From Escherichia phage Gluttony, in the sequence record NC_031113.1: a stretch of DNA of 44,513 nt, one strand, 5' to 3'. Both the position numbers and the translations under genes were made by a program. Under the pieces are notes generated by a model. That model ran no database searches. It saw nothing but the letters and a program-made list of their open reading frames with translations, and had not been told where the DNA came from. Shown here piece after piece: positions 345-26,248 of the stretch (within the stretch, counting starts at the first letter, position 1; each line of letters opens with the position of its first letter).

Positions 345-386
345 CGTGTGGTCCTCATTGATGCGGGCCGAAGCCCGCGATTAGAA

Positions 387-2608: not shown

Positions 2609-2655
2609 CGTGTTGTCTCCAGGTATTAAAAAGGGCGTCCAAACCGGACACCCTC

Positions 2656-2684
2656 AATATAAGGCAACCAATATGACTATGCAA
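2656..2684 (-). promoter_or_regulatory. Sigma70-like promoter (TTGCAT-17-TATATT) built from two ATTGGTTGC motif copies
   Basis: Read on the minus strand upstream of the ATG at 2608. Confidence 0.4.
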
Positions 2685-2689
2685 CCAAT

Positions 2690-3013
2690 TTACGCATAAA
2701 AGTTCGGGTCGCGTGCAACGTCTACCAGGTAAAGGTTGCTTATGCGGTTGCCGTAGTGCCCTGGAGTGCGCTGGCGGCACACAACGGCGAAGCCTGGAGG
2801 GATTGTATTGCCCGTCTCAATAATCCACGCCACGCGTGCGCCAGACAGCGTCTTGCCGTTGTATTCGATACGTGTTCCGCCATCGGCGGTATTGAGGTTG
2901 CCAATTTTGCAGCCGGTGGACTTCAGACGAATGACGCCGGTTTTGCTGTCGTAGGAGAATAACTGGTTAGTCATTGCAACCGAAAAATCGATGGCTTCGA
3001 ATGAAGTATTCAT
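2690..3013 (-). CDS. HNH_3-like (NUMOD-type) endonuclease-like protein, possibly degenerate
   Basis: RVAWIIETGNTIPPGF...NRISNLYLV resembles the HRLVW...IDH...NLRLV pattern, but the catalytic D-H is not evident. Confidence 0.45.
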   Translation of the reverse strand: MNTSFEAIDFSVAMTNQLFSYDSKTGVIRLKSTGCKIGNLNTADGGTRIEYNGKTLSGARVAWIIETGNTIPPGFAVVCRQRTPGHYGNRISNLYLVDVARDPNFYA

Positions 3014-3705
3014 TTTAAATTTTCCTCGTTAACCGCTATCGCGAAGCCGCGCGGAGTGAGCGACCGGATTAATTTTGTGCGGGCTGATTTGCCTCCGAGG
3101 CGACTATACTGCTTCGAGTACCCTTTTTCAACGAAAACAGGTCTCTTCTCTGGCATACGGAAGCCGTTGCCGGTCCATAAGCAGGTCAGCTTCGGATATG
3201 AATCGCGGGCGTTGATGTATTCCGGGAAGAGCGGGTGTACGTCATCCTCCGGCAGATATCCCCCATACTCCCACGGGTCGAATGAGTGATCCGGCTTGCG
3301 CCACTGGGTGGAAAGCACACTGCGCGGATTCTCAATCATATACGGCACTTCGAAGAAGTCACCCAGGTACGCGGCGATCTTCGCGGTGCGCACCGCCTTA
3401 AGCTGGAAGGCCGGGTCGCGGGCGCGTTTGCGCGGGAAAGCTGGCGCACCGCTCACCGCCAGATCAGTACACGGCGGGAATGCGTAGATGATATCTGGCG
3501 TACCGAAATCGCCATTCATCGCGCGGTCTACAAAGTCCAGATCAATAAACTCATTGCGATATCGGATCCCGCGACCATAAATCCGGTAGTCCAGGTACGA
3601 CCCGTGATCGGCTTCGGAGTAGTTAAAACAGTAGCACTTATGCCCCATCTCGGCAGCACGCTCAATCATCAAGCCGCTGCCGTCAAACAATGACCAGATT
3701 ATCAT
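3010..3705 (-). CDS. DNA cytosine-C5 methyltransferase-like protein, short at 231 aa
   Basis: Motif I-like LFDGSGL, PC motif FPPCTDLAVSGA, ENV-like IENP. Confidence 0.5.
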   Translation of the reverse strand: MIIWSLFDGSGLMIERAAEMGHKCYCFNYSEADHGSYLDYRIYGRGIRYRNEFIDLDFVDRAMNGDFGTPDIIYAFPPCTDLAVSGAPAFPRKRARDPAFQLKAVRTAKIAAYLGDFFEVPYMIENPRSVLSTQWRKPDHSFDPWEYGGYLPEDDVHPLFPEYINARDSYPKLTCLWTGNGFRMPEKRPVFVEKGYSKQYSRLGGKSARTKLIRSLTPRGFAIAVNEENLK

Positions 3706-5126: not shown

Positions 5127-5130
5127 ATCT

Positions 5131-5364
5131 TTATTCCGCCTTTTTCCAGACTTCAGTTTCACTGTTCCAGTTCCTTTTTGTGGCGTCGTAGTTGGTGGCG
5201 TGTCCGACGTGGACACCGGTAGCCCGGAAGCTCTTAAATTTTTGCCAGCACACCGTCAACGGCAGCGGATCATTCATGCCTGCGATAAACCATACGCGAT
5301 CGCCCGGTTTACATTCGCCCAGCTTGGTGAGTCGGTAATGTTCTTTCATCGTCATGTCTCCCAA
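5131..5364 (-). CDS. Hypothetical protein, 77 aa
   Basis: ORF track. Confidence 0.4.
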   Translation of the reverse strand: MGDMTMKEHYRLTKLGECKPGDRVWFIAGMNDPLPLTVCWQKFKSFRATGVHVGHATNYDATKRNWNSETEVWKKAE

Positions 5365-5392
5365 AAATGGCGGGACAAGCCCGCCGTATTAA

Positions 5393-5566
5393 TTATTTTT
5401 GTTCTGCACGGTAGCGGCGCTGCCGTTCGCGCTCTTTTTTATTGCGGCACGATTTGCACTCTGCCCGATACCCGTCTGGACTTCGCGCAGTCTTACCGGT
5501 GTATTTGTGGAACTGGGATAGCGGCTTTACACAGCCGCAATTACTACAACGTTTTTCTTCAATCAT
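5393..5566 (-). CDS. Small zinc-ribbon protein
   Basis: CSNCGC...CKSC cysteine pairs; start at MIEEK with a GAGGA RBS. Confidence 0.45.
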   Translation of the reverse strand: MIEEKRCSNCGCVKPLSQFHKYTGKTARSPDGYRAECKSCRNKKERERQRRYRAEQK

Positions 5567-5606
5567 CTCTAAAATCCTCGATATGGCTAACCGGCACACT
5601 ATACCG

Positions 5607-5885
5607 CTATGCGACCAATTCAGCAACCAATAAATCACAGTCGGCTATGCTGTCGATAACGCGAACGTCCGCACCGCGGCGGGCCATTCGCTCATGTTCT
5701 CGTACCTGGTGCGGCTTAGGTTTACCGCCTGGGCGCTTCACTTCGACGAAAACTATCTTGCCGTTGATGATGATAATCAGATCGGGCGCGCCTGCGCGCC
5801 CCTCCCACGCCACTTTACGGCAGAATCCGCCAACCTCTTTAACCCGTTTCATAAGGTGACGCTGCACCTTGCCTTCTGGTGTCAT
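5607..5885 (-). CDS. VRR-NUC domain nuclease
   Basis: VFVEVKRPGGKPKPHQ...E motif; ATG overlaps the upstream stop (ATGA). Confidence 0.7.
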   Translation of the reverse strand: MTPEGKVQRHLMKRVKEVGGFCRKVAWEGRAGAPDLIIIINGKIVFVEVKRPGGKPKPHQVREHERMARRGADVRVIDSIADCDLLVAELVA

Positions 5886-6514
5886 TGTCGGCTTTTCCTT
5901 ACGGCAGCGATGGCAGGTCCGATAAACTTCTTCATTTCGTCCGGGGTAAACCGATCCCCGCGGGCTATGTTGCACTCTACGCAGCACGGCACGCAGTTAT
6001 CTTTCGTATGGCCTACTGCGTTGTCGAGTCGGTCCGCGCCATTGTCGCCGGTGAATCCGCAGTATGCGCACGGCTGAGAAGTAAGGCGCAGCACGTCCTC
6101 TGTAGTAAGGTCGGTGTTTAGCCCCTTCCTTTCGTCTGCCTTACGGTACTGAAAGAGTTTATAGTAAGCGCGGATCTCTGGTGTCCGGTGGTTGTACTCG
6201 CGGCGTGACTTATTAGCGCACGATCGGCATTCTTTACGAATATGTGACCCGTTTGCTTGGCTTCCTGGCCGGAAGTTTTCCGGCGTGAGCGGCTTGCGCT
6301 CACCGCACGTACGACATGTTACGATCTCCCCGGTGTACTCTCGCCATACTTCTCTCGGCGGCGCGCCTCTTTCCTTATCCCGTCTCTCTTTCTTATATGC
6401 CGCCATGCATTTGGCGCACCACGACTGGCCCTTGTTGAAAGCGGACTCATCTTTACCCGTATTACAACGCCCACAATGTTTCATATACACCTCGAAAAAG
6501 AAAACGCCAGACAA
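5882..6514 (-). CDS. HNH endonuclease with N-terminal zinc-finger repeats
   Basis: CAYCGF...GH...N..CCVECN HNH-type motif. Confidence 0.7.
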   Translation of the reverse strand: MSGVFFFEVYMKHCGRCNTGKDESAFNKGQSWCAKCMAAYKKERRDKERGAPPREVWREYTGEIVTCRTCGERKPLTPENFRPGSQANGSHIRKECRSCANKSRREYNHRTPEIRAYYKLFQYRKADERKGLNTDLTTEDVLRLTSQPCAYCGFTGDNGADRLDNAVGHTKDNCVPCCVECNIARGDRFTPDEMKKFIGPAIAAVRKSRQ

Positions 6515-6550
6515 TAATGCCCAACGTTTCCGCTAAAAGCAACATTTCCG

Positions 6551-8842
6551 CTACTTGCGGTAGCGATACATGCAATCGCCCTCTGCGGCAAGTGGGAAGC
6601 CTTTCGCCCAAATAGGCAGGTCGCACATCAGCGCGCAAAGCTCCTCTGTCGTGTAGTCGTCGGTGTCCGGCACTTCTGTGATCAATTCATCATGCACCGA
6701 TAGAACGATTTCATAGCCCGCAGCTTCAACGCCAGGCATTGACCAGGCGAGAATATCACGGCACAACGCCTGTACTATGTTCTCCGTCAGTTTGCCGCCG
6801 TAGGTATACTGGAAGCCCCACTGGCGCGTCGTCTGATTCTCGCCCTGATATTTAATGCGGGTGCTGGTGCGTTTCTTGCCGGTATCTTCGTCGATCTCGG
6901 TCGTCACTGACAGCGCAATGCCTGGATAACTCATAATACGCCCCGACGGCAACTCAATTTTCAACCACCACCCCGCGGCGTTCGGGTCGTCGCGTTCCTC
7001 GTCGAAGGTTGGGTCATGCTTCGCCTTCGTGCGGACTATCTTGAGCGCTTTCTTACCATCCGGGCGAACGTTCGCGCCAGCCCAGTACGCTTTGCCAGGA
7101 TTGCGGATTGCACACAACACCGCGTCCTCAAGCTCGGCCCAAAAGGCTACCGTCTTCGGGTGAGCCTCGCGCCACATGCGTTTAATCGCATCACACGTAA
7201 GCCATACGTTTTTCGGCAGTATGTAAGTCGGGCGCTCGTCCTTCTTGCCAGGCTTTGGCGGTCGCTTCGCTTCGTTAATGCGGGCGTACTCATAACCCCG
7301 TTTAGCCGCTGCCCAAATGTGATCGGGGAATGTGCCCTTCATGACGTCCGCCATCGCGTAAAGGTCGAGGCCCAGGTTTTTAGCGAACTGCAAGAACGCC
7401 GCGACGCCGCCACCATAGCCCAGCCCCAATTCGCACGCCTTACCGATCTGGCGTAAGTCCTTGCGGTTAGCTTTAATGTAGTCCGGGTCCAGGCCGAACA
7501 TCTTACCGGCAGTCTCACAATAGATATCGCGACCGGCCTTAAACACCATTAGCGCGGTTTTCTCGCCTGCGATCCAGGCAAGTCCACGCCCTTCCACGTT
7601 GGAGTAGTCCGCTACGACAAACTTCTTGCCCTTAGCCGGGATAATGCACCCGCGAACGGTCGAGGCTGTTAGCTTAGATATGTCATACGCCCAGTGCGCG
7701 GTCCCGCGTAACAGGGAATTGATGCCGTTGGTGAGCATGTGCGACCGGACCCAAAAAGCAACGTCGCTCTCGCCTTCGCGGCGCTTAATCTTCCCTTCGT
7801 GATCGTCGCTATACTCGCCGCGTGCCAGGTTTTGAGGCTGGAAGCCTTTACCCGCCCAGCGCAGCGTGCGCTTTGCACCACCATACTGAAGACACCCACG
7901 GCGGCGACCATCTGCGGATAAGCCGTTAACTAGCGGATTGTACTTAGTCGATGCCGTTGATGACGCTCCGAGGCGCATTTCTATAAGCGCTTTGCCTTCG
8001 TCGGGGAAGTCCGGGTCTTCAAGCAGGTCGTTAAGTGTGGATTTCTGCGCGTTGTGGATCGTGAACGCCGGGGCGATATCACGTAGGATTGGCAGGAAGT
8101 CATTGCCGGTCAGCTTACCGCCAAATCGCTCCCAGGCTTCCTCTTTCAATTCTTCCTTATGCGCCTGTACCGCTTTGATCGCAGCGCGCGCCAGGTCAAC
8201 GTCCACGTAGAAGCCGCGGTCGTTAATCAATTGGTCGATAAGCAGGATTTCGTCTTCCTTCGGCGTATTACCCCAGTCCGGTATGCGCCAATAGACTTCC
8301 CTCATCGCGATGATATCCAGCGCGGCATAGCGCAGGAATTTAGCCCACTCCTCGGGGTGCGTCTTGCGCGTGTAGCGGCGGATTTTGTAGGTCTTAGGGG
8401 TAGGCTTACAGAATCGTTTAATCAGCGCCTTGCCTGCCTTATCCTTCGCGTGCTCTGCGTCAACGCCCAGCACCTGACACTGCATATCGAGGCTACCCGG
8501 CAGCGCGTGCCGAAAGGCCATAATCATGGTATCTTCGATCTGGCTTACCGGCAGATCTATACCCCACTTCTCGCGAATAACAAGGCGGTCAAACAGGAGG
8601 CCGTTAGCCATCACTATTTTTGCTTTCTTGCGGGATACACGGCGGAGTGCCTTGCGCAGTTCACGCGGCATTGTTGGGGATTCAGTGGCATCCCATGTCT
8701 GCACGCGGCCTTCGTCGATGGCGTAGGTGCAAATCATAATCTCGGTGGTTTGGTGCTCTGCGTAGGCGTACGCCCCTACTTTCTTCAGGTCCACCCCGCT
8801 AAATGTCTCGGTGTCGAGAAACAGACGTTCGAAGTCTTTCAT
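6551..8842 (-). CDS. Family A DNA polymerase with 3'-5' exonuclease domain
   Basis: Exo I LDTETFS; motif A DYSNVEGR; motif B RKDLRQIGKACELGLGYGGG; motif C VHDE. Confidence 0.9.
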   Translation of the reverse strand: MKDFERLFLDTETFSGVDLKKVGAYAYAEHQTTEIMICTYAIDEGRVQTWDATESPTMPRELRKALRRVSRKKAKIVMANGLLFDRLVIREKWGIDLPVSQIEDTMIMAFRHALPGSLDMQCQVLGVDAEHAKDKAGKALIKRFCKPTPKTYKIRRYTRKTHPEEWAKFLRYAALDIIAMREVYWRIPDWGNTPKEDEILLIDQLINDRGFYVDVDLARAAIKAVQAHKEELKEEAWERFGGKLTGNDFLPILRDIAPAFTIHNAQKSTLNDLLEDPDFPDEGKALIEMRLGASSTASTKYNPLVNGLSADGRRRGCLQYGGAKRTLRWAGKGFQPQNLARGEYSDDHEGKIKRREGESDVAFWVRSHMLTNGINSLLRGTAHWAYDISKLTASTVRGCIIPAKGKKFVVADYSNVEGRGLAWIAGEKTALMVFKAGRDIYCETAGKMFGLDPDYIKANRKDLRQIGKACELGLGYGGGVAAFLQFAKNLGLDLYAMADVMKGTFPDHIWAAAKRGYEYARINEAKRPPKPGKKDERPTYILPKNVWLTCDAIKRMWREAHPKTVAFWAELEDAVLCAIRNPGKAYWAGANVRPDGKKALKIVRTKAKHDPTFDEERDDPNAAGWWLKIELPSGRIMSYPGIALSVTTEIDEDTGKKRTSTRIKYQGENQTTRQWGFQYTYGGKLTENIVQALCRDILAWSMPGVEAAGYEIVLSVHDELITEVPDTDDYTTEELCALMCDLPIWAKGFPLAAEGDCMYRYRK

Positions 8843-9009
8843 TGCTTTATCCTCACTACGGCGTCAGCGCTGCCGATCATGGAGAAGATGCCGTCTGACA
8901 GGGCAATCTCTTCGCCGTTGTTGCGAATCTCGGCAACTGTGAAATATTCCCCCAGTAGCTTAGACCATACTTTCATTCCGACTTTTACTTCGCTGGCTTT
9001 AATCCGCAT
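8840..9009 (-). CDS. Small hypothetical protein, 56 aa
   Basis: Hand-translated ORF (MRIKASEVKVGMKVW...) with an AGGA RBS; its stop overlaps the polymerase start. Confidence 0.3.
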
Positions 9010-9020
9010 TTTTCATTGTC

Positions 9021-9049
9021 CTATTAAAAAGCCCGCATTAAGCGGGCTT
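9021..9049 (-). terminator. Rho-independent terminator after the SSB-like gene
   Basis: 8-bp GC stem AAGCCCGC/GCGGGCTT followed by a T-run on the minus strand. Confidence 0.6.
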
Positions 9050-9067
9050 GAATAGTGGGCTTTGCCC

Positions 9068-9841
9068 TTAACGGCGGCGACGTTTACGTGGCGCTTCGTC
9101 TTCGTCGTCGTCCTCATCTTCGTCATCGCGTGGTTTACGACGTTTGCGAGGTTTTTCGTCGTCGTCGTCATCGCTGCGCTTGGACTTTTTGGACTTACGC
9201 GGCTTGTCGTCTTCGTCATCGTCATCACGACGTTTTGACTTTTTGGACTTACGCGGGCTTTCATCTTCGTCATCGTCGCCCAGGTCTTCGTCGGAACATG
9301 AAGACCCGCCACCGCCGAAGGCTTCTCCGTCATCGCGGAAGCGCATACCCAGCAGACCACAGCCTAAGCCTTTGCCGTTGGTATTGTTCCAGGCCCAAAT
9401 ATCTAAGGAAACGTTGCAATAGCAACCGGAATAGATTTCCTTCCCTTCGATTTCGTCGCCGTCGATGGTCAGACCCTGCTCCGTCTGCTTCTCGCCTTCG
9501 GAAGTCTGGATGATCGGCTGTTTGAATGATTTGGCATTGATGTACAGCTTTCCTTCAAACTCTTCCGTCACTTCTTCACGCTCGTCACCATCACGAACTG
9601 CACATTCTTTCGAATCCTGTGCGTAGTGGCGGTCCATCCACTTATCGGCGTTCTTTTCAGACTTCAGCTTTTCGGTGAGCACTGCGCGTGCCGCCGCTTC
9701 CACTTTGTCCACCTGCGGATCTTCTTTATCAAGAATAATCACCGCACGATATGCCGGTTTTTGTCCATCCTGTTTAGGGGTGTCACGCTCCCAAATTTTC
9801 GGGAAGCATACACGTACATTTTTCAGGTTGACTTTAGCCAT
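9068..9841 (-). CDS. Phage ssDNA-binding protein (DUF2815-like) with alternating acidic/basic C-terminal repeats
   Basis: MAKVNLKNVRVCFPKIWE N-terminus with GAGGAA RBS; C-terminal DDDEDE/PRKSKKSKR repeats. Confidence 0.55.
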   Translation of the reverse strand: MAKVNLKNVRVCFPKIWERDTPKQDGQKPAYRAVIILDKEDPQVDKVEAAARAVLTEKLKSEKNADKWMDRHYAQDSKECAVRDGDEREEVTEEFEGKLYINAKSFKQPIIQTSEGEKQTEQGLTIDGDEIEGKEIYSGCYCNVSLDIWAWNNTNGKGLGCGLLGMRFRDDGEAFGGGGSSCSDEDLGDDDEDESPRKSKKSKRRDDDDEDDKPRKSKKSKRSDDDDDEKPRKRRKPRDDEDEDDDEDEAPRKRRRR

Positions 9842-9937
9842 TTTCCAATTCCTCATTTCACATGTATCGGGGTTATTAGAAGCCACCCCGTCCGGCTTGG
9901 TTGCTAATGTACTTGGTTGCGTTTCCGCGGTCAAGTG

Positions 9938-10171
9938 TTATTTATTAAAAAGTTTTAAAATCAGGTCGAGATATTTGTGCAGCCACACCAGTGGCGGGCG
10001 GTGCACGTTGTTTTCCATCCAGTTCAAACAGGCTTCGTTATAGCCGTCGTCCCATAAGCGGGATGGGTGGCGAATCATCCAGGCCAGCGCCAGCAGACCG
10101 CCGCAGGTATGTACTACGAATCCCAGTGCCGCCAACGGCAGCACCATAATCATTGCCAGAATCTTATTCAT
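9938..10171 (-). CDS. Small membrane protein
   Basis: Two hydrophobic segments (ILAMIMVLPLAALGFVV, GGLLALAWMI). Confidence 0.4.
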   Translation of the reverse strand: MNKILAMIMVLPLAALGFVVHTCGGLLALAWMIRHPSRLWDDGYNEACLNWMENNVHRPPLVWLHKYLDLILKLFNK

Positions 10172-11594
10172 CGTTTAAATCCTCGTCGCTTGCTTCTTGC
10201 CATTCCGGGCGCGGGTCGTCAACTGGTGCCAGGACTGGTTTCGCAGGTGCACGCGTGATTTTATCTTGCAGCTTCGCCCACACTTTCGGTTTCTCATCCT
10301 TCAGCACCTTCTCGGCATCAGTAGGGCTGATTAATGATTCCTTGTACATCAGGTCGCGCTTGATCCGGGCCGTTGTGAATACAGCGATAACTTCGCTTTC
10401 ATCCTTCCACTTACGCGCACCTTCACGACCTGCTACCAGCTTCAGGCCCAGCGCTTCGCCGTCACCGGCTAACACTGCTTTGAATACGGCAGCCTCGATC
10501 GCTTTGATGTGCTGGCGCATGGTTTCCAGACCGTCGTAAGCCTTTTTCAATTCTTCCGTGGTCATTGCACCGGCTGGCGCTTCTTTCTCGCCACGCTTCG
10601 CACGTCGGGCCGCTTTCCGGGCTTCGCGGGCCATGTTCCGGTCGTGGTTTTTGCATTCTTCCTCGGTGGCAATGCTTACATCGTCGCCCAGGTCTTCGTC
10701 GGTTGCCGTTGGTGGCGTCATTGTGTCGATGGCGGCTTTAGCGCGGGCACTACATTGATCCGCAAATCGACACCACTGACACGCATCGGCGCTCGGACGG
10801 AAGTCTGCACGGGTGAGATTCTTCTTACCCTTAGCGAAGGCATCCAGGGCGGCTACTGCGCGTTTTGCTGCGTACTTGGCGAAGATTTCCAGTGCTTCCA
10901 CTGAAATATCCCACTCCGATGCGCCGCCGCAATACGGCTGGAAGATGACCAGGCGAACGGTGGTAATGTCGTACATCTTTTGCAGCTTGCGCAGCAGACC
11001 GAGCGCATACAGCATAAGCTGTTTGTTCTCTTTCGCCTCGACCTTATGGCGTCCGGTCTTCAGGTCGCCAACAATCAGCATGTACGTGCCGTCGGTCTTC
11101 TTCATGACCATAACCATATCGGCAGTACCGAAGGTTTTAATCACCTCGCCGTCAATCTCGTAGCCTTTGTGCAGGACGCGTGTCAGATCCGCGCGCATCT
11201 CGAGCTGAACAAACTCCGCCACTTCGAGGAGCGGTCGCCAGTGGTCGATGTACGCGTCGCACTGTTTCACCATATCGTCGTTGACCAGTACGCCGCCTTT
11301 CGGTGCTTTCGGGTGTGCCTTTACTGGCCCCTTTCCTTCGTTCTCGACGTAACACCCTTTATACGTCTTTGCGGTTATCAGCTTTTCACCGGCGATAATG
11401 CGGTTTAGCACGACTTCAGATACGGTGTGCATACTCGTACCGTTAATCGCGGCTTGCCCGGATTCGTTTGGGATATCTTTTTCTACCACCAGAGCGGCAG
11501 GGCAACCCATCCATTTTTTAGCACCGGACGGCCCGAGTAATGAGTGTTCGGTATTGCTACCGGATTGCGTCTTACGTTTTGGTTTAATCGCCAT
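10164..11594 (-). CDS. PD-(D/E)XK (RecB/Cas4-like) exonuclease with Cys cluster and C-terminal extension
   Basis: GTADMVMV, IVGDLKTG, QLMLYA motifs; CQWCRFADQC cluster. Confidence 0.65.
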   Translation of the reverse strand: MAIKPKRKTQSGSNTEHSLLGPSGAKKWMGCPAALVVEKDIPNESGQAAINGTSMHTVSEVVLNRIIAGEKLITAKTYKGCYVENEGKGPVKAHPKAPKGGVLVNDDMVKQCDAYIDHWRPLLEVAEFVQLEMRADLTRVLHKGYEIDGEVIKTFGTADMVMVMKKTDGTYMLIVGDLKTGRHKVEAKENKQLMLYALGLLRKLQKMYDITTVRLVIFQPYCGGASEWDISVEALEIFAKYAAKRAVAALDAFAKGKKNLTRADFRPSADACQWCRFADQCSARAKAAIDTMTPPTATDEDLGDDVSIATEEECKNHDRNMAREARKAARRAKRGEKEAPAGAMTTEELKKAYDGLETMRQHIKAIEAAVFKAVLAGDGEALGLKLVAGREGARKWKDESEVIAVFTTARIKRDLMYKESLISPTDAEKVLKDEKPKVWAKLQDKITRAPAKPVLAPVDDPRPEWQEASDEDLNDE

Positions 11595-11773
11595 TATTCC
11601 ACCCTTGTAAACTGGACAATTACATATTTCACATTAGCCAGGCCCGCTTTTTCGACTCGGCGCTTAACTTCATTTTGCGCGTCCACAAAGCAATTGCTTG
11701 CGTTGGTGTTTTCAACAATAAAAGAAGTGTGATCGTTTAATTCGTGGCAAGTTGCCATGACGAAGAATTTCAT
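11594..11773 (-). CDS. Small hypothetical protein, 59 aa
   Basis: ORF with GGGAGA RBS; start overlaps upstream stop (TAATG). Confidence 0.35.
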   Translation of the reverse strand: MKFFVMATCHELNDHTSFIVENTNASNCFVDAQNEVKRRVEKAGLANVKYVIVQFTRVE

Positions 11774-12024
11774 TATTTTGTCTCCCAGCGGTCGATTGTT
11801 TTTGCTTCGGATGCAACTGCGAAGCGAACATATTCCAGATTTGAATCCGCCCAAATATAAAAGTCGGGATTAATAAAGGTGGTGCGCTTAATTTGCGCGG
11901 GGGTGTTGCGGCGTTTGTCTATTACGGCAACGCGTGACTGAAAGCTGCCGATGCGTTCGAATAGCCAATAGTACGGGCGCTGGTCGCGGGAATCCACCGC
12001 CTCGATTAGCGTGAATCGTGCCAT
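11773..12024 (-). CDS. Hypothetical protein, 83 aa
   Basis: ORF track. Confidence 0.4.
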   Translation of the reverse strand: MARFTLIEAVDSRDQRPYYWLFERIGSFQSRVAVIDKRRNTPAQIKRTTFINPDFYIWADSNLEYVRFAVASEAKTIDRWETK

Positions 12025-12035
12025 TGTCTCGTCCT

Positions 12036-12065
12036 CTAAAAATAGGCCCGCAGATTAGCGGGCCG
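12036..12065 (-). terminator. Rho-independent terminator after the first leftward early gene
   Basis: GGCCCGC/GCGGGCC stem followed by TATTTTT on the minus strand. Confidence 0.55.
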
Positions 12066-12072
12066 GATAATA

Positions 12073-12579
12073 TTAATCTTCCAGTTCGAAATAAGTTTCG
12101 ACGATTTCTTTTAGCTCTTTGTGGAAGTCTTCGACGTCGTCATCTTCCAGCTTAGCGATTGATTTGATTTCGAACGCGTCCAGCAGATCATCAAATTCGT
12201 CGTTCGCGTCGTCGTCATCACCGCCCGCGATAATCGCGGCATACTGTTTGATCTCGTCGCGCATCTCCGCCAGCGGATCGGCATCTTTCTTGCCTTTGCC
12301 CTTCGCCGGTGCTTTTTTAGACTTAGCCGGTTTTGCGTCTTCGGCGTCTTCGTCGTCATCTTCGACTACTTCTTTTTTAGCCTTACCTTTCGCCGGGGCT
12401 TTTTTAGATTTAGCCGGTTTTTCGTCTTCGTCGTCATCTTCGACAACTTCTTTTTTGGCCTTAGACGGCTTCTTGTCTTCCTGCTTACCAACGGCAGCGC
12501 CAACGGTTTCATAATGCTTAGCGATGACTTCCAGTGCTACTACGCCGCGAGTGATCAGGTTTACGATTTGCTCAAACAT
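12073..12579 (-). CDS. Highly charged tandem-repeat protein, first gene of the leftward early operon
   Basis: Start at MFEQIV with GGAG RBS; two copies of KKEVVEDDDEDEKPAKSKKAPAKGK; polyacidic C-terminus. Confidence 0.6.
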   Translation of the reverse strand: MFEQIVNLITRGVVALEVIAKHYETVGAAVGKQEDKKPSKAKKEVVEDDDEDEKPAKSKKAPAKGKAKKEVVEDDDEDAEDAKPAKSKKAPAKGKGKKDADPLAEMRDEIKQYAAIIAGGDDDDANDEFDDLLDAFEIKSIAKLEDDDVEDFHKELKEIVETYFELED

Positions 12580-12775
12580 GGTATATCTCCGATTGGTTAA
12601 GTTTAGGTGTCGGCAGTTAACTTCGTCGGTGGCCTTAACATATTGCCAGGTTACGCGTTCTCCCGTTCGGGTAGTGGACCTGGTTATATAATCACGGTTG
12701 GGAATCCTGACACTTCGATCCGGCCCCTGCGTTGCCCCTCTCCAGTTTGCGTCCTGCATCCTGTCGACGGAGTGA

Positions 12776-12805
12776 ATGATAGATTGGTTGCAGGATGGGT
12801 GTCAA
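12776..12805 (-). promoter_or_regulatory. Leftward early promoter (TTGACA-18-TATCAT)
   Basis: Consensus -35 read on the minus strand, about 190 nt upstream of the ATG at 12579. Confidence 0.5.
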
Positions 12806-12981: not shown

Positions 12982-13311
12982 ATGAATATCAAAGAAGCAA
13001 TTGAAGTGTTATCTAATGCAATCCGCGGCGAAGCGGGTAAATCCTGGTATTACACAAATGCGGTGGATACTCTGTTATTTGAAGTGTCCAGATTATCGCG
13101 TGCTGAGAAGGAGCTTACCGCGAAGCTGGAATTGCTCAACGGCACGGCAGCAAGCAAGCTGCAAAAACACAATGAAGAAATGGAAGAATACAAAAAACAG
13201 GTTATCCGTCTACGTGAGGAAGGTAAATCCTGGGCGATGATTGCCGAGTTGACCGGAATTAATCAGAGCACAGTGCGCTCCTGGGTACGCAATAATAAAA
13301 CTTCTAAGTAA
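12982..13311 (+). CDS. HTH DNA-binding protein, putative transcriptional regulator
   Basis: C-terminal KSWAMIAELTGINQSTVRSWV helix-turn-helix; coiled-coil middle. Confidence 0.5.
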   Translation: MNIKEAIEVLSNAIRGEAGKSWYYTNAVDTLLFEVSRLSRAEKELTAKLELLNGTAASKLQKHNEEMEEYKKQVIRLREEGKSWAMIAELTGINQSTVRSWVRNNKTSK

Positions 13312-13321: not shown

Positions 13322-15586
13322 ATGAGCTTAATTAAATTCGCTGTAACAAGACCCGCTAAAAAAGGCGAAAAAGCCAGGGCGGAAAACTTCCAGATGACGA
13401 CCGATGAATTTTTCGAATTTATCAAAGATGCGAAAGAGATATCGTCGGTGCATATCAACAAGACGGAAGATAAAGCCGAGTATGCGCGCCGCAAGCGTAA
13501 GGCCGATGGCATCGTAGCGTATACCAGTGACGGCTTACGCCGCAAGACCAGTGCGGTGGACCGCTCGATCCTGTTCTTCGATATTGACCGTACCGACACC
13601 CGCACCCTACGCCGCTGCCGTAAGGCTTTCATCGACGCGGGGCTGGAGCACGTATTTCACACCACAACCGGCGACCGCCACCCGCTGAAAGGCGGCACGC
13701 GTTGCGCTCGTTTCCTGGTGCTCACCGACAAGCCTGTACCGGCTGAAGACCTGGGCCGCGTCCAGTACGCACTATTACACCAACTGGGCCTGTCAGATGT
13801 GGACTTCGATGATTGTACGAAAGACACAAACCGCCTGATGTACCTGCCACACCAGCAGTCTGTTATTAAGTGCCACTACGGCAAGCGTGCCCGCGTCCGT
13901 CGTCTGCTTCGCCTGGCGGATAAGTTGGGCGTGGAGAAGGAGGAAGTACGCCGCGAGCTTACCCAGGGCGACGACGCAGTGGCAGACGGCATTCTGGACT
14001 GGTGCTTCCAGGCAGGATTCGAGGAGTTATCTTCCGGTCGCGGTTATGAAGTGCCGTGCCCGAACGAACATCTGCACAGCGGCGAAGGGTCGACGGCTAT
14101 CATGGTCAAGGATGGCGAGATCCGTTTCAAGTGTATGCACACCGGCAACGAGTGTTGCTCGGAACTGAACAGACACCAGCACCTGGCGCTACGTCTTATC
14201 GGGATCCCGGACCACCTGAACGTCGAGCCGCACAACATGTCACGTAAGCAAATCGCCGCCATCCTTCCGGGACTGGACGATGAGGAAGTGGAATCGTGCT
14301 ATGAACATATCGTTGATGCGGTCGGAGACGGCGACGAGTACGGCGTGTGTACTGATGCAGACCTGGACAACGAGCCGGTCGCACTGTTCAGTAAGCACGA
14401 CCCGATCATCGAAGGCCTGGTCAACTTCAAATCGACCTGGTATCTCGCCGGTGAGTCGAACATTGGCAAGTCGTTCTACGTGCTGGGCCAGATGGCGTCA
14501 GTATCTGCCGGTATTCCGTTCGGCGGTGCGAAGGTCGTCCAGTCTCATTGCTTCTATTTCGATGCGGAAGGTGGTGAGGCCTCCAACCAGCGTAAAGAAG
14601 CACTGCAGATCAAATATGAGCACGACCTGGACAAGCTGCACATTATCGATCTGCAATCACGCGGCTGGGATATCACCAGCAAATCCGGCTTGCGTGAAGT
14701 TATCAGCTTCATCAACCGCACCGCTAACGGCGAGCCGGTTGGCCTGGTGGCGTTCGACTCACTCAACCAGACTGTTGCGCTGCGGTCCGCCGATGCAAAA
14801 CCGTTCGACGAGAATAACGCCAGCGATATGGGTGAAGTGGTCAAAGCGCTGAAGGCCATTGCGGAAAATACAGGCGGCAGTGCGGGCGTCATCCACCACC
14901 CGGCGAAGGGTGCAAACGGCAGCAGATCTCCCCGTGGGTCCGGCGCGCTGCATGGCGCTGTCGATTCTGCGTTCTTCCTGGAACAGCCGGACGACAACCA
15001 GCCAGGTCAACTCAACCTGTATCACGAAAAATCCCGTAACGGCATCAAGCAAGCGCCGCGCGGCTTCGTCCTGCTCAAGTGCAAGGTTAAGGTGGATCTC
15101 CGCAAGTCCGAGGCGTTCGAAGCCCACCAGTCCACCAGCACCGGGCCGGACTTCGGTGACGTCGTTGCCGGTTGGGACGTCAAGCCGATTGCCTCCACGC
15201 CACGCGACGAGACTCTTTACCTCGTACCGGTCGCCCTGGCACCGTTCGCCATTGAGCAGGCAAAGGCCGCTGGCAAGGCCGCAGTTAAGGAAGAGAACGC
15301 CGCAGGACCGCGCAACGAAAAAGAGAAAGTGCTTTATGCAGCGCTGGAAAAACTGATGGAAGATAACCCGGACCATACCGGATTCAGCAAATCGGCAATT
15401 GTCCGCCAGGCTGGGCTTGCGAAAGGTGGCACATCGACGAAGGCAATTGACGATATGGTCGAGCGCGGCGTGCTCGGTTTTTATACCGATCCGCACACCG
15501 GGGCCATCTATGGGTCGTCGAATATCGTCATCAAAACGAAGATACCCATCACGCTTTCGGCGACCGATGACGACTTAAAAGATTAA
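13322..15586 (+). CDS. Primase-polymerase (AEP-like) fused to a RecA/DnaB-like ATPase; replication initiator candidate
   Basis: FFDIDRTD acidic motif, Cys/His zinc cluster, Walker A GESNIGKS, Walker B FYFDAEGG. Confidence 0.7.
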   Translation: MSLIKFAVTRPAKKGEKARAENFQMTTDEFFEFIKDAKEISSVHINKTEDKAEYARRKRKADGIVAYTSDGLRRKTSAVDRSILFFDIDRTDTRTLRRCRKAFIDAGLEHVFHTTTGDRHPLKGGTRCARFLVLTDKPVPAEDLGRVQYALLHQLGLSDVDFDDCTKDTNRLMYLPHQQSVIKCHYGKRARVRRLLRLADKLGVEKEEVRRELTQGDDAVADGILDWCFQAGFEELSSGRGYEVPCPNEHLHSGEGSTAIMVKDGEIRFKCMHTGNECCSELNRHQHLALRLIGIPDHLNVEPHNMSRKQIAAILPGLDDEEVESCYEHIVDAVGDGDEYGVCTDADLDNEPVALFSKHDPIIEGLVNFKSTWYLAGESNIGKSFYVLGQMASVSAGIPFGGAKVVQSHCFYFDAEGGEASNQRKEALQIKYEHDLDKLHIIDLQSRGWDITSKSGLREVISFINRTANGEPVGLVAFDSLNQTVALRSADAKPFDENNASDMGEVVKALKAIAENTGGSAGVIHHPAKGANGSRSPRGSGALHGAVDSAFFLEQPDDNQPGQLNLYHEKSRNGIKQAPRGFVLLKCKVKVDLRKSEAFEAHQSTSTGPDFGDVVAGWDVKPIASTPRDETLYLVPVALAPFAIEQAKAAGKAAVKEENAAGPRNEKEKVLYAALEKLMEDNPDHTGFSKSAIVRQAGLAKGGTSTKAIDDMVERGVLGFYTDPHTGAIYGSSNIVIKTKIPITLSATDDDLKD

Positions 15587-15700
15587 AATTTGCGCGCATT
15601 GGTCGCCGATATGGGGATTCCCATATCGCTAGACGATTAAATTTTGCGCGCATTGGTTGCCATTTTGAGTGTTTTTATCTGGTCGTATTGGTTGCCGTGT
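15584..15700. repeat. Direct repeats TTAAA(A)TTTGCGCGCATTGGT(C/T)GCC x2 flanking the palindrome CGATATGGG-GATT-CCCATATCG
   Basis: Read directly downstream of the primase-helicase stop; a third ATTGGTTGCC copy near 15687. Confidence 0.6.
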
Positions 15701-15744
15701 AGTGTGAATATAGTGAATAGTTATGCAGTTTTATTGCATAAAGT

Positions 15745-15902
15745 AAGCGGGACAAAAAGCGGGACAAACAAGGGGCGGGACAAAGCGGGACAGCACCCCC
15801 GTCCCGCCACGGATGGCGCGGCTTCCAGAGGAGCGGGACAGCGGGACAGCACCCCAGTCTTTCAGACTAGACGGGGGTCAATGGCCCCCCTCGTCTGAGA
15901 CT
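15745..15902. repeat. GCGGGACA iteron-like array A with 3' hairpin module; putative origin or regulatory cassette
   Basis: At least six GCGGGACA copies at about 11-bp spacing, then CAGTCTTTCAGACTAGACGGGGG...CCCCCCTCGTCTGAGACTG; near-identical to 31965..32124. Confidence 0.6.
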
Positions 15903-16062
15903 GAATAAAATCCGGGGATTGCAAAATACACGGCAGCATGATGCTAAGTGCGGTCGTCGATGAACTAGGCAACCAATGCAGGTTGTATTATGCTGAGTGA
16001 AAATGCGGTTTGCAGTCACAGCAGATAGCGATCAACTTTTTCATGCGCGTGATTAATATTGG

Positions 16063-16091
16063 TTGCACCCTGCCTGGCGCCCTGCTATATT
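16063..16091 (+). promoter_or_regulatory. Sigma70-like promoter (TTGCAC-17-TATATT) formed by two TATTGGTTGCAC copies
   Basis: Spacing counted directly; 29 nt upstream of the ATG at 16120. Confidence 0.5.
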
Positions 16092-16119
16092 GGTTGCACA
16101 CCAACAAGAGGACTGAACG

Positions 16120-16425
16120 ATGAAAGCATTAATCTGGAATTACACATCAGCGGTCGCAGCGCTCTATGAAGCGAAGCACACAAACGGCAACGCCGACCAC
16201 GCACGCCAGGCTGTAATGTTCGCGCAGCAGGCAATCTTTGCAGCGTTCGACAACATGGGCGTCAGCCTGGATGAACTGGAACCATTGCGTGTGGCAATCT
16301 GCGAGTATGCGATGAAATTCGCCCGTGAGCGTCTTGCGTACCGGTTTGGCATCGGAGAGACGGCAGTGACTAACATCGCTCGCATCACGGCTCAGCGTGA
16401 GCTACACGCCTTACTTGCGAAATAA
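16120..16425 (+). CDS. Hypothetical early protein, 101 aa
   Basis: ORF track; RBS AGAGGA. Confidence 0.5.
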   Translation: MKALIWNYTSAVAALYEAKHTNGNADHARQAVMFAQQAIFAAFDNMGVSLDELEPLRVAICEYAMKFARERLAYRFGIGETAVTNIARITAQRELHALLAK

Positions 16426-16434
16426 GGGGCTAAA

Positions 16435-16704
16435 ATGGCACGTAGACGCGCTAAATGGTTATCCTGGTATATTCCCCTGCATAGCATCCGTTTATGGGCG
16501 CAGAATGCGATTGAGGGTGATTCTGTGTTCTGGAGCTATCGGGATGACGTCAAGCCGCTGACGCAGACCAAAATGCTGCACCAGTTCATGAACGAACACG
16601 GACTGCCGGTGAAAACATCATTGCAACCAATCGGCATCCGTATTACATTACGCCGTAAGCCAATCGTTGCGCAGGTTGGCAAACACAAGAGACTGAGCAA
16701 ATGA
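16435..16704 (+). CDS. Hypothetical early protein, 89 aa
   Basis: ORF track. Confidence 0.45.
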   Translation: MARRRAKWLSWYIPLHSIRLWAQNAIEGDSVFWSYRDDVKPLTQTKMLHQFMNEHGLPVKTSLQPIGIRITLRRKPIVAQVGKHKRLSK

Positions 16705-16853
16705 CACCAATGCAAAGAGCGCTAATGGCTGGATTCTCGCAGAAGTTTATTTCAGTAGACGACTGCATAGCTGATTATGAGATGGACGGCATCGCTACGG
16801 TATGCGATGGCGACTATAAGACTGTTGACGAGATCGAGGAGACTGAGCAATGA
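16701..16853 (+). CDS. Small hypothetical protein, 50 aa
   Basis: Hand-translated ORF (MTPMQRALMAGF...) with overlapping ATGA junctions at both ends. Confidence 0.3.
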   Translation: MTPMQRALMAGFSQKFISVDDCIADYEMDGIATVCDGDYKTVDEIEETEQ

Positions 16854-17404
16854 AATTACTATTCCGCAATAAACATAACGGGCTATTCTTCACCCCGATC
16901 GAAGTGCTGCCGAACTTTGTGCGCATGTACCATGAAGCCAGCGACCGCGTATACTGGTACAGGAAAGACACCCTGCATGAGCATTTGCAGGTTGTGCATC
17001 ACGACGTACGAGTAGGTGATGTGCTGCGTTGTGATGGCAATGACTACACCTGGGTCGTGAAGTCAGTCGGGAAGGAATGGATTACTATCGACAGCACTCT
17101 GGTTGCGGGCGCAACAATAAACCCCGCCACCCTGGTGAACTACACCCGCGTAGGCCGGAACTATGCACCTAAGCGCCCTGGCGTCGAAGCGAAAGCGATT
17201 ACCCGTACGGAGCACCCATATACCAAATACGACGAGAACAAGGTGCGCCAGCATATCGACAACGCCCGGAAAGCCATCACCCAGCAATGTGATGCGATGC
17301 GCCTGGCTAATCTGGACGCAGAGCGCTTTGGCATTGGTGTGATCCTGGTCTACCCGGACGGCAGCATGAAGTCTACCGATCCGCGCTCGGTGATTCAGAA
17401 ATGA
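16850..17404 (+). CDS. Hypothetical early protein, 184 aa
   Basis: ORF track; RBS GAGGAG. Confidence 0.5.
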   Translation: MKLLFRNKHNGLFFTPIEVLPNFVRMYHEASDRVYWYRKDTLHEHLQVVHHDVRVGDVLRCDGNDYTWVVKSVGKEWITIDSTLVAGATINPATLVNYTRVGRNYAPKRPGVEAKAITRTEHPYTKYDENKVRQHIDNARKAITQQCDAMRLANLDAERFGIGVILVYPDGSMKSTDPRSVIQK

Positions 17405-17541
17405 GTGCGACGGTCCGTGATATGCTAATGCATAACCGCTTTGAGGTTGGCGGTCGTGTATTCCGTAACTACTTCGTTGCGCGCGCCTGGGCGCGCCACA
17501 TTGGCAAACCAGAGGGGGCAATACGATGCTACACGATTTGA
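17401..17541 (+). CDS. Small hypothetical protein, 46 aa
   Basis: Hand-translated; start overlaps previous stop. Confidence 0.3.
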   Translation: MSATVRDMLMHNRFEVGGRVFRNYFVARAWARHIGKPEGAIRCYTI

Positions 17542-17813
17542 TATATTGGTTTGGATTGGGGTGCGCGACACTCTTTGCCACGGTGCTGGCGCTGTTGGTA
17601 TGGGTGTTCCTGATTTGGCCCGCGGTGGAAGCAGCCAGCATTACCCGCATGACGTTCCAGATATACAAGCGCCGTGGCATCACGGAGCACCCTACCAGGT
17701 TGCGCATGTGGTGGCTATGGTATCGCGATATGATCGGCGGGCGAATGTTCGAGGCCGTCCGATCGGAAGGGTGGGAGTGGAAAGGCGTCGGCAAGTGGTC
17801 CATTTTCGATTAA
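17526..17813 (+). CDS. Membrane protein, 95 aa
   Basis: Hydrophobic N-terminus LGCATLFATVLALLVWVFLIW. Confidence 0.4.
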   Translation: MLHDLIYWFGLGCATLFATVLALLVWVFLIWPAVEAASITRMTFQIYKRRGITEHPTRLRMWWLWYRDMIGGRMFEAVRSEGWEWKGVGKWSIFD

Positions 17814-17830
17814 TTATGCAAGCGTGATAT

Positions 17831-17865
17831 AGTCCCAGTGAGCTAAAACTTACTGGGACTTTTTT
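17831..17865 (+). terminator. Intrinsic terminator directly abutting the holin start codon
   Basis: 9-bp stem AGTCCCAGT/ACTGGGACT, 12-nt loop, then TTTTT and ATG at 17866. Confidence 0.5.
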
Positions 17866-18156
17866 ATGGATAAGCTAAACGAGTGGTTATTCGCCCTTGC
17901 GTGTCTTGCTGGTGGCTTCGTAGGCGCACGCATTCATGGCGAGGCAACGAAAGGGCCGCTAAACTTCGTGTTATATATCGTAGTTGGCTTCCTGTGTGCC
18001 ATCTTTGGTGCGCCAGCTATCGCCGAGTGGGCTGGCTTATCTGGCGAGCGCACTGTCGCCGGTTTGGGCTTCGTAACTGCAATCTTCTGGATGCCAATCG
18101 CCGACCGGGTCAGGGGGACTATTGCGTCGTTCCGACTTCCGGGGGGTGCAAAATGA
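17866..18156 (+). CDS. Holin
   Basis: 96 aa with three hydrophobic segments, directly upstream of the endolysin. Confidence 0.6.
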   Translation: MDKLNEWLFALACLAGGFVGARIHGEATKGPLNFVLYIVVGFLCAIFGAPAIAEWAGLSGERTVAGLGFVTAIFWMPIADRVRGTIASFRLPGGAK

Positions 18157-18398
18157 TTATCTCCGTCCTGTTGTTTGTTATCATCGGGGCTTCGTCCCTG
18201 TTTAACGTGTATGCGCCGTCCGTCCGGGATGGCTTTTTCGGTCGGGTGCTGTATCTGTTAACGGCAATGGTCTGTTTTATCGGATTGTTGCAAACCGGAG
18301 ACGTATCTGATACCACCAGGACCGCGTTAATATGGCTGTTTGCATTGCGCACGCTGCGTAATGCTGTTTTGAATGGGGTAAAACATGCGATTCAGTGA
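18153..18398 (+). CDS. Second small membrane protein of the lysis cassette (holin or antiholin-like)
   Basis: 81 aa, two TM-like segments, overlaps both neighbours. Confidence 0.45.
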   Translation: MIISVLLFVIIGASSLFNVYAPSVRDGFFGRVLYLLTAMVCFIGLLQTGDVSDTTRTALIWLFALRTLRNAVLNGVKHAIQ

Positions 18399-18876
18399 CA
18401 ACGGTCTACGATTTACGGCAGCATGGGAGACGTTCAGTCCAGTGCCGTATTTCGCGACTAAGAAAGAGCAGGCACGCGGCCTGTACACCTGGGGCTATGG
18501 GCATACTGGCACAAACCCGCCGCGGAGCATTACCCGCGCGGAAGCGCTTGAACTACTCAAGCGCGATGTGGCGTATGCCGAAAACTGGGTGAACAAGTAC
18601 GCACACCCTAGTATCAATCAGGCGCAATTCGACGCGCTGGTGGACCTGGTTATCAATGCCGGTCCTGGTCCGATCATGCCGGACGACGTCGCCGGAGACT
18701 TCGACGATGCGATCCGCCTGGGTGACTGGGCAAAGGTCCGTGCTACGCTGCCACAATTCCGCAAGCAAGGCGGGGCAGTGCTCAAGGGGCTTGTCCGTCG
18801 TGCAATCGGCAGGCAGGCACTATTTGATGGTAAGCAGTGGGATGTTGCCGAGAAAATCGGGCGAAACGCCGCATAA
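18385..18876 (+). CDS. Endolysin, phage lysozyme (GH24-like) family
   Basis: YTWGYGHTG and QFDALVDLVINAG...GLVRRAIGRQALF signature. Confidence 0.75.
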   Translation: MRFSDNGLRFTAAWETFSPVPYFATKKEQARGLYTWGYGHTGTNPPRSITRAEALELLKRDVAYAENWVNKYAHPSINQAQFDALVDLVINAGPGPIMPDDVAGDFDDAIRLGDWAKVRATLPQFRKQGGAVLKGLVRRAIGRQALFDGKQWDVAEKIGRNAA

Positions 18877-26189: not shown

Positions 26190-26218
26190 TTGTGTGTCCT
26201 CGTTGTTGGTGTGCAACC

Positions 26219-26248
26219 AATATAGTGCAACCAATACGAGGATTGCAA
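26219..26248 (-). promoter_or_regulatory. Promoter for the moron (TTGCAA-18-TATATT) with two GTGCAACCAATA copies
   Basis: Leader and RBS near-identical to the 16063 promoter cassette (TATATTGGTTGCACACCAACAA-GAGGA). Confidence 0.5.

Follow-up and report, generated by a model that had tools for sequence, protein, structure and literature searches.

Six small genes upstream of the lysis cassette of a Dhillonvirus phage as a candidate accessory host-interaction operon with a cassette-exchange slot

What does a run of six small open reading frames (ORFs), directly upstream of the holin genes, do for the phage that carries it? The run, p1 to p6, lies in the genome of Escherichia phage Gluttony (sequence record NC_031113.1; the whole stretch of 44,513 nucleotides that was analysed is called the window below), which belongs to Dhillonvirus, that is, to the HK578/SO-1-like lytic siphophages of ~44-45 kb. 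An earlier note, made from the letters of the DNA only, had described these ORFs as translationally coupled, early expressed genes behind a promoter at 16063, and had counted the run among the regions in which host-takeover and anti-defence proteins usually reside. Our best explanation, to which we give a rough probability of 0.55, is that p1-p6 constitute an accessory host-interaction operon with a slot for cassette exchange. In this model, a weak sigma-70-type promoter with a ATTGGTTGC box would drive all six genes, and a terminator would insulate the lysis cassette from them. Host RNA polymerase would transcribe the unit alongside the other genes behind box-containing promoters, before or independently of the late structural genes. 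The products would serve as accessory host-interaction factors (in takeover, counter-defence or exclusion) and not as parts of replication, lysis or the virion. Co-infecting relatives would exchange cassettes by recombination at a short conserved junction, and this junction would supply the ribosome-binding site of the next gene, so that swaps would leave downstream translation intact.

The six ORFs, of 46-184 amino acids (aa), are all present between 16120 and 17813, exactly where the earlier note had placed them (Table 1), and its picture of small, tightly packed genes of unknown function behind a plausible promoter, with translational coupling likely, was borne out. The claim that most of them are joined by ATGA overlaps held for three of the five junctions (p2/p3, p3/p4 and p4/p5, each with a spacing of -4 nt). 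The other two differ, with an overlap of 16 nt (-16) at p5/p6 and a gap of +9 nt at p1/p2, where the p2 start has its own AAGGGG Shine-Dalgarno sequence. A Shine-Dalgarno-like sequence precedes every start, that of p3 being the weakest, and a terminator scan returned no plus-strand terminator-like site within 16120-17830. Judged from this layout, p1-p6 are probably one co-transcribed and translationally coupled unit of ~1.8 kb. Such tight packing is typical for the genus and not special, because ATGA overlaps are common in it: the annotated SM_S22 genome has them at 13 of 69 junctions, four of which fall inside the p1-p6 run. Orthologues of p4 and p2 were found in 150-155 Dhillonvirus records, and the other ORFs recur across 25 compared loci. 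Since orthologues exist in ~150 genomes and the ratio of nonsynonymous to synonymous divergence (dN/dS) is below 1, the five ORFs for which this ratio was determined (p1, p2, p4, p5 and p6) can be taken as genuine genes. As the earlier note had it, none of them carries a recognisable motif: Pfam and NCBIfam gave no match of significance for any of the six proteins, PDB sequence searches with all six gave nothing below E 0.5, and the only families to be matched were PHROG families labelled 'unknown function', whose profiles cover essentially the whole protein in each case. None of the six matches a structural-protein family.

We then considered how these genes have evolved. Pairwise dN/dS was determined over 16-17 loci for the five genes named above and for the flanking genes, gene content was compared over 25 loci, and promoter and terminator were aligned over 17 related loci. 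The ratio was highest for p1 (0.40) and p4 (0.32), lower for p2 and p6 (0.20 each) and lowest for p5 (0.08); the flanking genes gave 0.04 (primase), 0.06-0.12 (holins) and 0.06 (lysozyme). On these values all five tested genes are under purifying selection. Protein identity of the neighbours (primase, holins, lysozyme, phosphoesterase) was 93-99% in most comparisons, next to 48-93% for p1 and mostly 34-42% for p4 across the genus; taken together, p1 and p4 were at 35-84% in most comparisons. Synonymous divergence was similar throughout (pS 0.29-0.47, holin 2 excepted), and the excess divergence of p1 and p4 is therefore a matter of amino-acid change. The most conserved member was p5, with 80-98% identity (mostly >90%), and p6 was divided in itself, with a dN/dS of 0.33 in its transmembrane part and of 0.09 in the C-terminal part that makes up two-thirds of the protein.

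Gene content varied as well, and only p1 and p6 were intact in all 25 loci. In many relatives p3 is missing, or unrelated ORFs stand in its place. Further ORFs are optional: one of 59 aa upstream of p1 (with another type in mckay and Maverick) and, in some relatives, one of 56 aa between p4 and p5 and a hydrophobic peptide of 33 aa between p5 and p6. Damaged copies of p4 include a TAG at codon 134 in JLBYU60, a reduction to residues 1-68 in PNS1, which also has no p5 match, a reduction to residues 119-184 in JL1, and an annotation as two coding sequences in Maverick. For p2, an N-terminal truncation was seen in slur05 and slur06 (slur05 without the first 35 residues) and a fusion to the next cassette in JLBYU60. 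For each of p2, p3, p4 and p5 there is some viable isolate that lacks the gene or carries it in truncated form. Five of the six families were seen only in Dhillonvirus-type sequences, most rigorously in the case of p4, for which an exhaustive HMMER search of 1.84 billion representative proteins (23 hits) found no homologue outside the genus. The sole member with relatives beyond it is p6, which recurs in Jerseyvirus-like Salmonella phages and in Erwinia jumbo phages; a tblastn search with p6 gave 464 records, 302 of them from Salmonella phages (mostly Jerseyvirus-like). Because of the dN/dS of 0.3-0.4 for p1 and p4, the gain and loss of cassettes, the damaged copies in viable isolates and the restriction to the genus, this evolutionary signature lends indirect support to accessory, host-interacting genes. 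The signature as a whole (fast evolution, presence/absence variation, dispensability) was seen for p1, p3 and p4 and in part for p2 and p6, and it was lacking in p5 and the p6 C-terminal domain (dN/dS 0.08-0.09).

The gain and loss of cassettes has a focus between p2 and p4, where the 12-mer GAGACTGAGCAA marks the junctions. It has two exact copies in the 44.5-kb window, both directly before a start codon, where ~0.005 would be expected from length alone, and with up to two mismatches (<=2) there are eight matches against a shuffle mean of 2.4. The earlier note had claimed a repeated initiation context for several of the genes; we found these two exact copies and, in degenerate form, a third at the ribosome-binding site of p1 (GAGGACTGAACG-ATG), and not more. 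The copy at the end of p2 is present within one mismatch in 23 of 25 loci and exact in 22. Where p4 directly follows p2 (in the compared loci listed as SO-1, EP23, rolling and Gluttony), there is one GAGACTGAGCAA copy, joined to the p4 start ATGAAATTACTA, and an ORF inserted between p2 and p4 ends in a second copy of its own. The inserts are of several types: p3, a p3 variant, an unrelated basic ORF of 50-54 aa, and a 114-aa paralogue of the middle domain of p4. One locus (L015) has three inserted ORFs and three copies. In most of the 25 genomes the copy number thus tracks the inserted cassettes; the exceptions include mckay, which has no copy within one mismatch. In the whole 44.8-kb genome of SM_S22, GAGACTGAGCAA occurs just twice, both times at the p2/p4 site, and a scan of IMG/VR for the 15-mer junction gave what were apparently mostly unrelated contigs. 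Translation runs through the motif in either of two frames (…RLSK* and …ETEQ*), and a one-base variant at the junction (CAATGA or CAAATGA) preserves the ATGA overlap. The 114-aa ORF was found in locus L012 (IMGVR_UViG_3300045988_011231, 1268-1612), where it occupies the p2/p4 slot and matches phrog_10243 at positions 44-109 (E 6e-11), that is, the middle barrel domain of p4; domain-level duplication therefore feeds the cassette pool.

From the compared loci we conclude that the p2/p4 slot behaves as a cassette hotspot in which the inserted ORFs are bracketed by a 12-nt stop/Shine-Dalgarno/start junction, GAGACTGAGCAA(A)TG. As copies of the motif bracket the inserts, the breakpoints of homology coincide with GAGACTGAGCAA, and we infer a double role for it, in ribosome binding for the next gene and, as microhomology, in the exchange of cassettes. 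That unrelated cassettes converged on the same ribosome-binding site seems less likely, because the identity spans 12 nt. A bolder version of the cassette-slot reading would make the p2/p4 junction a dedicated exchange site, a promoter-less 'mini-integron without an integrase', and would in addition have p4 or p1 target a host defence component or RNA polymerase. The phage's own recombination functions would then use the 12-15-nt GAGACTGAGCAA(A)TG as microhomology, by which small host-interaction genes are gained, lost and traded among co-infecting Dhillonviruses, and each new cassette would be expressed automatically. We regard this combination as rather unlikely.

The putative promoter at 16063 that the earlier note had pointed out is present in the sequence and conserved, with TTGCAC (16063-16068), a 17-nt spacer and TATATT (16086-16091). 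Both hexamers and the 17-nt spacing are kept in 17 of 17 related loci and the spacer sequence is free to vary, as one would expect if this were a real promoter or a pair of binding sites. The region also holds two direct copies of the 9-mer ATTGGTTGC, the first of which contains the -35 hexamer; the -10 hexamer overlaps the second. In the window this 9-mer has 14 exact copies, where ~0.3 would be expected from its length, and nearly all lie at promoter regions, usually as direct-repeat pairs oriented with transcription. In a typical pair one copy forms the -35 element (TTGCAx) and the second lies in the spacer or beside the -10 element (TATATT or TATAGT). The genes behind such promoters are all non-structural: a homologue of the defence inhibitor anti-Tmn, a helicase operon, the 109-aa gene with the primase, p1-p6, a phrog_1965 gene that is probably nmad5, and the Cor exclusion gene. 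ATTGGTTGC may act as a promoter element specific to the phage or as an operator for some regulator; a full-text literature search for it returned solely primers in unrelated papers. Near position 999 a ATTGGTTGC copy and an inverted copy form a palindrome, and the p1 leader CTATATTGGTTGCACACCAACAAGAGGAC is nearly the same as the leader of the minus-strand gene that starts near 26190.

At the other end of the run, the intrinsic terminator has a fold energy of -24.1 kcal/mol (z -5.5), was also called by the scanner, and is kept in 17 of 17 loci; the most divergent of these (L005) has an extra C-G pair and its stem is still paired. Because the promoter class is shared with DNA-metabolism and "moron" genes and a terminator precedes the holin, these signals support, only indirectly, an early or middle expression of p1-p6. 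The early timing and the host-takeover or anti-defence role that the earlier note had proposed are hypotheses for the run. As a side observation, the left arm of the terminator hairpin is overlapped by a possible extended -10 sequence, TGATATAGT (17825-17833), whose conservation goes along with that of the hairpin. Transcripts from this site, starting ~7 nt downstream, would probably not include the left arm, so that they are predicted neither to terminate there nor to have the GGGA Shine-Dalgarno-like sequence of the holin sequestered. The TGATATAGT site could accordingly be read as a terminator-insulated lysis promoter.

Table 1. Positions of the six genes, of their signals and of the neighbouring features in the window.
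Feature	Position	Strand	Description
p1	16120-16425	+	101 aa; phrog_9839, E 2e-53
p2	16435-16704	+	89 aa; phrog_12533, E 1.4e-58
p3	16701-16853	+	50 aa; phrog_15977, E 5.3e-35
p4	16850-17404	+	184 aa; phrog_10243, E 9.8e-99
p5	17401-17541	+	46 aa; phrog_13628, E 8.4e-38
p6	17526-17813	+	95 aa; phrog_2531, E 3e-37
Junction motif GAGACTGAGCAA, copy 1	16689-16700	+	lies at the 3' end of p2 and gives the next gene its ribosome-binding context
Junction motif GAGACTGAGCAA, copy 2	16839-16850	+	closes the p3 cassette at its 3' end; final A shared with the p4 ATG
Promoter region	16058-16097	+	two direct ATTGGTTGC copies, 16058-16066 and 16089-16097
Intrinsic terminator	17831-17865	+	12-bp stem, 6-nt loop, U-tract running into the holin ATG (17866)
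ATTGGTTGC sites	12783-12791, 15598-15695, 16058-16097	+	
ATTGGTTGC sites	991-999, 2664-2689, 5611-5631, 15969-15977, 26213-26235, 42328-42336	-	
Leftward DNA-metabolism genes	1-12759	-	
Divergent promoter region			after the DNA-metabolism genes, before the 109-aa gene
109-aa gene	12982-13311		annotated variously as gam-like, transposase or resolvase
Primase/helicase	13322-15586		754 aa
Non-coding region			533 bp, between primase/helicase and p1
Two holins	17866-18156, 18153-18398		
Lysozyme	18385-18876		
Terminase and structural genes			downstream of lysozyme

Structural matches, a kind of evidence suggested in the earlier note, were to generic folds, and no homologue of known function was found for any of the proteins. 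p1 is confidently predicted as a four-helix bundle (AF2 model); its N-terminal half is hypervariable and its C-terminal half near-invariant (…FARERLAYRFGIGETAVTNVARIKAQRELFAQLAK). A weak Pfam match of p1 to HTH_Tnp_4 (E 0.052, residues 70-87) was considered as a DNA-binding unit and rejected, because in the AF2 model these residues comprise the end of one long bundle helix, a turn and the start of the next helix and form no helix-turn-helix unit; a PDB profile search with p1 gave no match. p2 is very basic (pI 11.3, net charge +12), p5 is basic (pI 10.8) and p3 is very acidic (pI 4.05, net charge -9.5), and p2 and p5, being basic, may bind nucleic acid. p4, which is mosaic and highly divergent between genomes, is predicted to fold into two small SH3/Tudor-like beta-barrels (residues 1-51 and 52-102), after which the model shows a disordered linker, then a long helix at residues 129-160 and, last, a beta-hairpin; tandem barrels of this kind would suggest binding of protein or nucleic acid, and RNA polymerase would be one candidate partner. 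In p6 a single transmembrane segment is predicted near the N-terminus (hydropathy peak at residues 16-34), from which we would regard the protein as membrane-anchored; its C-terminal domain is conserved and rich in Trp and Arg.

Several points weigh against an accessory host-interaction operon. The promoter matches the consensus at 8 of 12 positions and is absent from the list of the consensus scanner, and GAGACTGAGCAA could be conserved merely as a good ribosome-binding site for coupling and not for recombination. Positive selection was looked for and not found, no sub-region having a median dN/dS > 1, and on the values given above p5 and the C-terminal two-thirds of p6 are strongly conserved and not arms-race-like. 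In addition, p1, p2, p5 and p6 are kept in nearly all genomes, which a conserved phage-internal role would explain equally well. No homologue of known function was found for any of p1-p6, and the predicted structures match generic folds. Our literature search found no transcriptome, start-site map or expression time course of a Dhillonvirus phage, and neither the proteomics of phage EE09 nor the bov25_1D transcriptome paper holds usable data on p1-p6. Finally, the run could have been the home of a Dhillonvirus anti-defence gene or defence trigger that is already known, and both of these were placed elsewhere.

These two are the defence inhibitor anti-Tmn, which is ORF35 of SM_S22 (PMC11846954), and Ksap1 of SECphi18, the trigger of KpAvs2 (PMC11564622). 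We take SM_S22 CDS0035 to be ORF35, because it is present in SM_S22, absent from SM_A8 and flanked by the Dam methylase and HNH genes. The homologue in the window is a 154-aa ORF (2144-2608, minus strand) with 81% identity, which sits behind the ATTGGTTGC promoter at 2664-2689. Ksap1 lies elsewhere in the genome by the description in its paper (PMC11564622), and from synteny with SECphi18 and SM_S22 we predict its homologue at ~1470-1672 (minus strand), between the polynucleotide kinase/phosphatase and Dam methylase genes. SECphi18 mutants that escape Retron-Eco8, Borvo and RAZR were mapped to SSB, the DNA polymerase and the portal protein, further escape mutants to Ksap1, and none was reported in p1-p6. 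No homology of p1-p6 to a known anti-defence or takeover protein was found in Pfam, NCBIfam and PDB sequences, which are general libraries, and we found no literature that ties p1-p6 to any defence system. Anti-Tmn and Ksap1 are nevertheless small, genus-restricted and variable Dhillonvirus proteins like those of the run, albeit different genes at different sites.

The main rival to the host-interaction operon is that p1-p6 form a regulatory module of the phage itself, in which p2, p5 or p1 would bind the ATTGGTTGC boxes or p4 would act on RNA polymerase, with early shut-off or a switch-on of late and lysis genes past the terminator at 17831-17865 as the outcome. The 14 copies of the box speak for such a module, lying mostly at promoters and with two at the operon's own, and so do the high pI of p2 and p5 and the retention of p1, p2, p5 and p6 in almost all genomes. 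The spacing of the boxes, however, differs between promoters (12, 14, 17, 31 and 35 bp), so that there is no single operator geometry, and no helix-turn-helix or other DNA-binding family was detected in p1-p6. The sole candidate for binding RNA polymerase, p4, is hypervariable and truncated in viable isolates, whereas the host polymerase is conserved. The position of the operon, just ahead of a terminator bordering on the holin ATG, is reminiscent of Q before PR'/tR' in lambda, where the order is the Q gene, PR', tR' and the lysis genes; the two regions share a run of small genes immediately upstream of a strong terminator before the holin gene. In lambda the promoter lies ~200 nt from the terminator and here 1.8 kb upstream of it, and no antiterminator was among the fold matches listed for the p1-p6 models that could indicate a Q-like fold. 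The possible extended -10 TGATATAGT could moreover drive the lysis genes without an antiterminator: unlike in lambda, its position over the left arm of the terminator would suggest a separate lysis promoter whose transcripts are free of the hairpin. On balance we hold a regulatory module to be unlikely.

For p6, a function in lysis or in the envelope was also weighed, in which p6 and the optional 33-aa hydrophobic peptide would lie outside any takeover module and p6 would act as an antiholin, as a lysis-timing factor or as a membrane protein of superinfection exclusion. The predicted transmembrane segment fits such a role, as does the distance of only 52 nt to the two holin genes and the extra hydrophobic ORF between p5 and p6 in some relatives, but a strong and conserved terminator separates p6 from the holins. 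In two Jerseyvirus genomes a p6 homologue lies downstream of the lysozyme gene, in a row of small ORFs that leads up to the terminase genes; however, it is several small ORFs away from lysozyme and beside the terminase genes, with no adjoining holin. Similarity of p6 to holin, antiholin or spanin families was not detected either, and PHROG labels the two downstream genes 'holin' and p6 'unknown'. This alternative therefore appears distinctly improbable to us.

Least probable of all, and very unlikely in our estimate, is that p1-p6 are accessory replication or origin factors that act with the primase/helicase on an iteron element upstream, for although the 533-bp region upstream holds six GCGGGACA iterons and conserved hairpins, the ~170-bp iteron element is repeated at 31960-32130 and p2 and p5 are basic, the searches of Pfam, PHROG and NCBIfam gave no similarity of p1-p6 to any replication protein, several of the genes are dispensable or exchanged, the hypervariability of p1 and p4 contrasts with nearly invariant primase and iterons, and the promoter lies downstream of the iteron element, which makes the operon a separate unit.

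The iteron element has features of its own. Its two copies (15736-15905 and 31960-32130, plus strand) are ~88% identical, the first lying between the primase/helicase gene and the p1 promoter and the second between the tail-chaperone and tape-measure genes. Each has a cluster of six GCGGGACA iterons, together with a long hairpin (CAGTCTTTCAGACTAGACGGGGG…CCCCCCTCGTCTGAGACTG) in which the loops vary and the stems are invariant; RNAalifold found no covariation in the element, because the stems do not vary. In SM_S22 the upstream copy is tandemly duplicated. One possibility for the element is a replication origin plus a second cis site, by analogy with phage P4, in which ori and the crr sites form a similar pair; another is an RNA element. 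Next to it, the hairpin at 15716-15736 (TTATGCA-N7-TGCATAA) has a 7-nt loop that is reverse-complemented between strains (GTTTTAT versus ATAAAAC) on an unchanged stem, so this palindromic element has apparently flipped its orientation during evolution.

With regard to earlier annotation, the p1-p6 locus is ordinary phage "dark matter", a familiar kind of phage region that is already in public records. The 2.6 kb searched around it (15600-18200) are 100% identical in nucleotide sequence to Escherichia phages Lust (KX534338) and Pride (KX534341) and 84-90% identical to many other Dhillonvirus members, and the GenBank record of Pride annotates all six ORFs, each as "hypothetical protein". Two further ORFs in the region were rejected as genes. 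A 37-aa ORF annotated in Pride (16010-16123, plus strand) spans the promoter and has an unconserved frame: a 1-nt indel in Lust, Pride and Envy breaks the frame that relatives keep from an upstream ATG. The open frame of a 246-aa antisense ORF over p4-p6 (17063-17803, minus strand) is not maintained in relatives, in which the longest stop-free antisense stretch there ranges from 88 to 338 aa.

What is new, the rule of the cassette junction and the promoter box, is modest. Dhillonviruses such as SECphi18, Bas14-18 of the BASEL collection and Lust are widely used for probing the anti-phage systems of E. coli, and a defence inhibitor (anti-Tmn) and a defence trigger (Ksap1) are known among their small genus-specific proteins, both encoded elsewhere in the genome. 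The p1-p6 run is the other concentrated block of fast-evolving, swappable and uncharacterised small genes in these phages, and p1, p3 and p4 would be the first candidates on a short list for interaction with defence systems. The junction rule moreover gives a simple means to enumerate the accessory gene pool of the genus. If p1-p6 turned out to be ordinary phage-internal factors, the result would merely tidy the annotation.

Among known systems, the predicted barrels of p4 have the same fold as the Tudor/SH3-like domains that interact with RNA polymerase (the C-terminal domain of UvrD/PcrA, and CarD). Sequence identity to these is merely 9-17%, many unrelated SH3-like barrels (ribosomal eL14, L27, FeoA, DUF1653, Kid and VapX) match p4 about equally well, and p4 varies greatly whereas host RNA polymerase, the partner of UvrD/PcrA- and CarD-type domains, is conserved. 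The closest precedent for the cassette slot is found in the hyperplastic regions of T4-type phages with their PeSL elements (PMC2839356, PMC4122927). A PeSL is a composite unit of promoter and stem-loop, whereas what is repeated here is a stop/Shine-Dalgarno/start junction of 12-15 nt within a single operon, and no promoter-like or terminator-like site was reported at the GAGACTGAGCAA positions, which sets them apart from PeSLs by definition. Unlike PeSL cassettes, all cassettes here would rely on a single upstream promoter; the phage is a siphophage of 44.5 kb and not a T4-type myovirus, and recombination at GAGACTGAGCAA is read here from breakpoints. As in the T4-type regions, however, lineage-specific runs of small ORFs of unknown function lie between conserved core genes, and whole ORFs are inserted, deleted or replaced between copies of a short repeated regulatory sequence. 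Altogether, the junction rule would add an example of short regulatory repeats that guide modular exchange beyond the T4-type phages.

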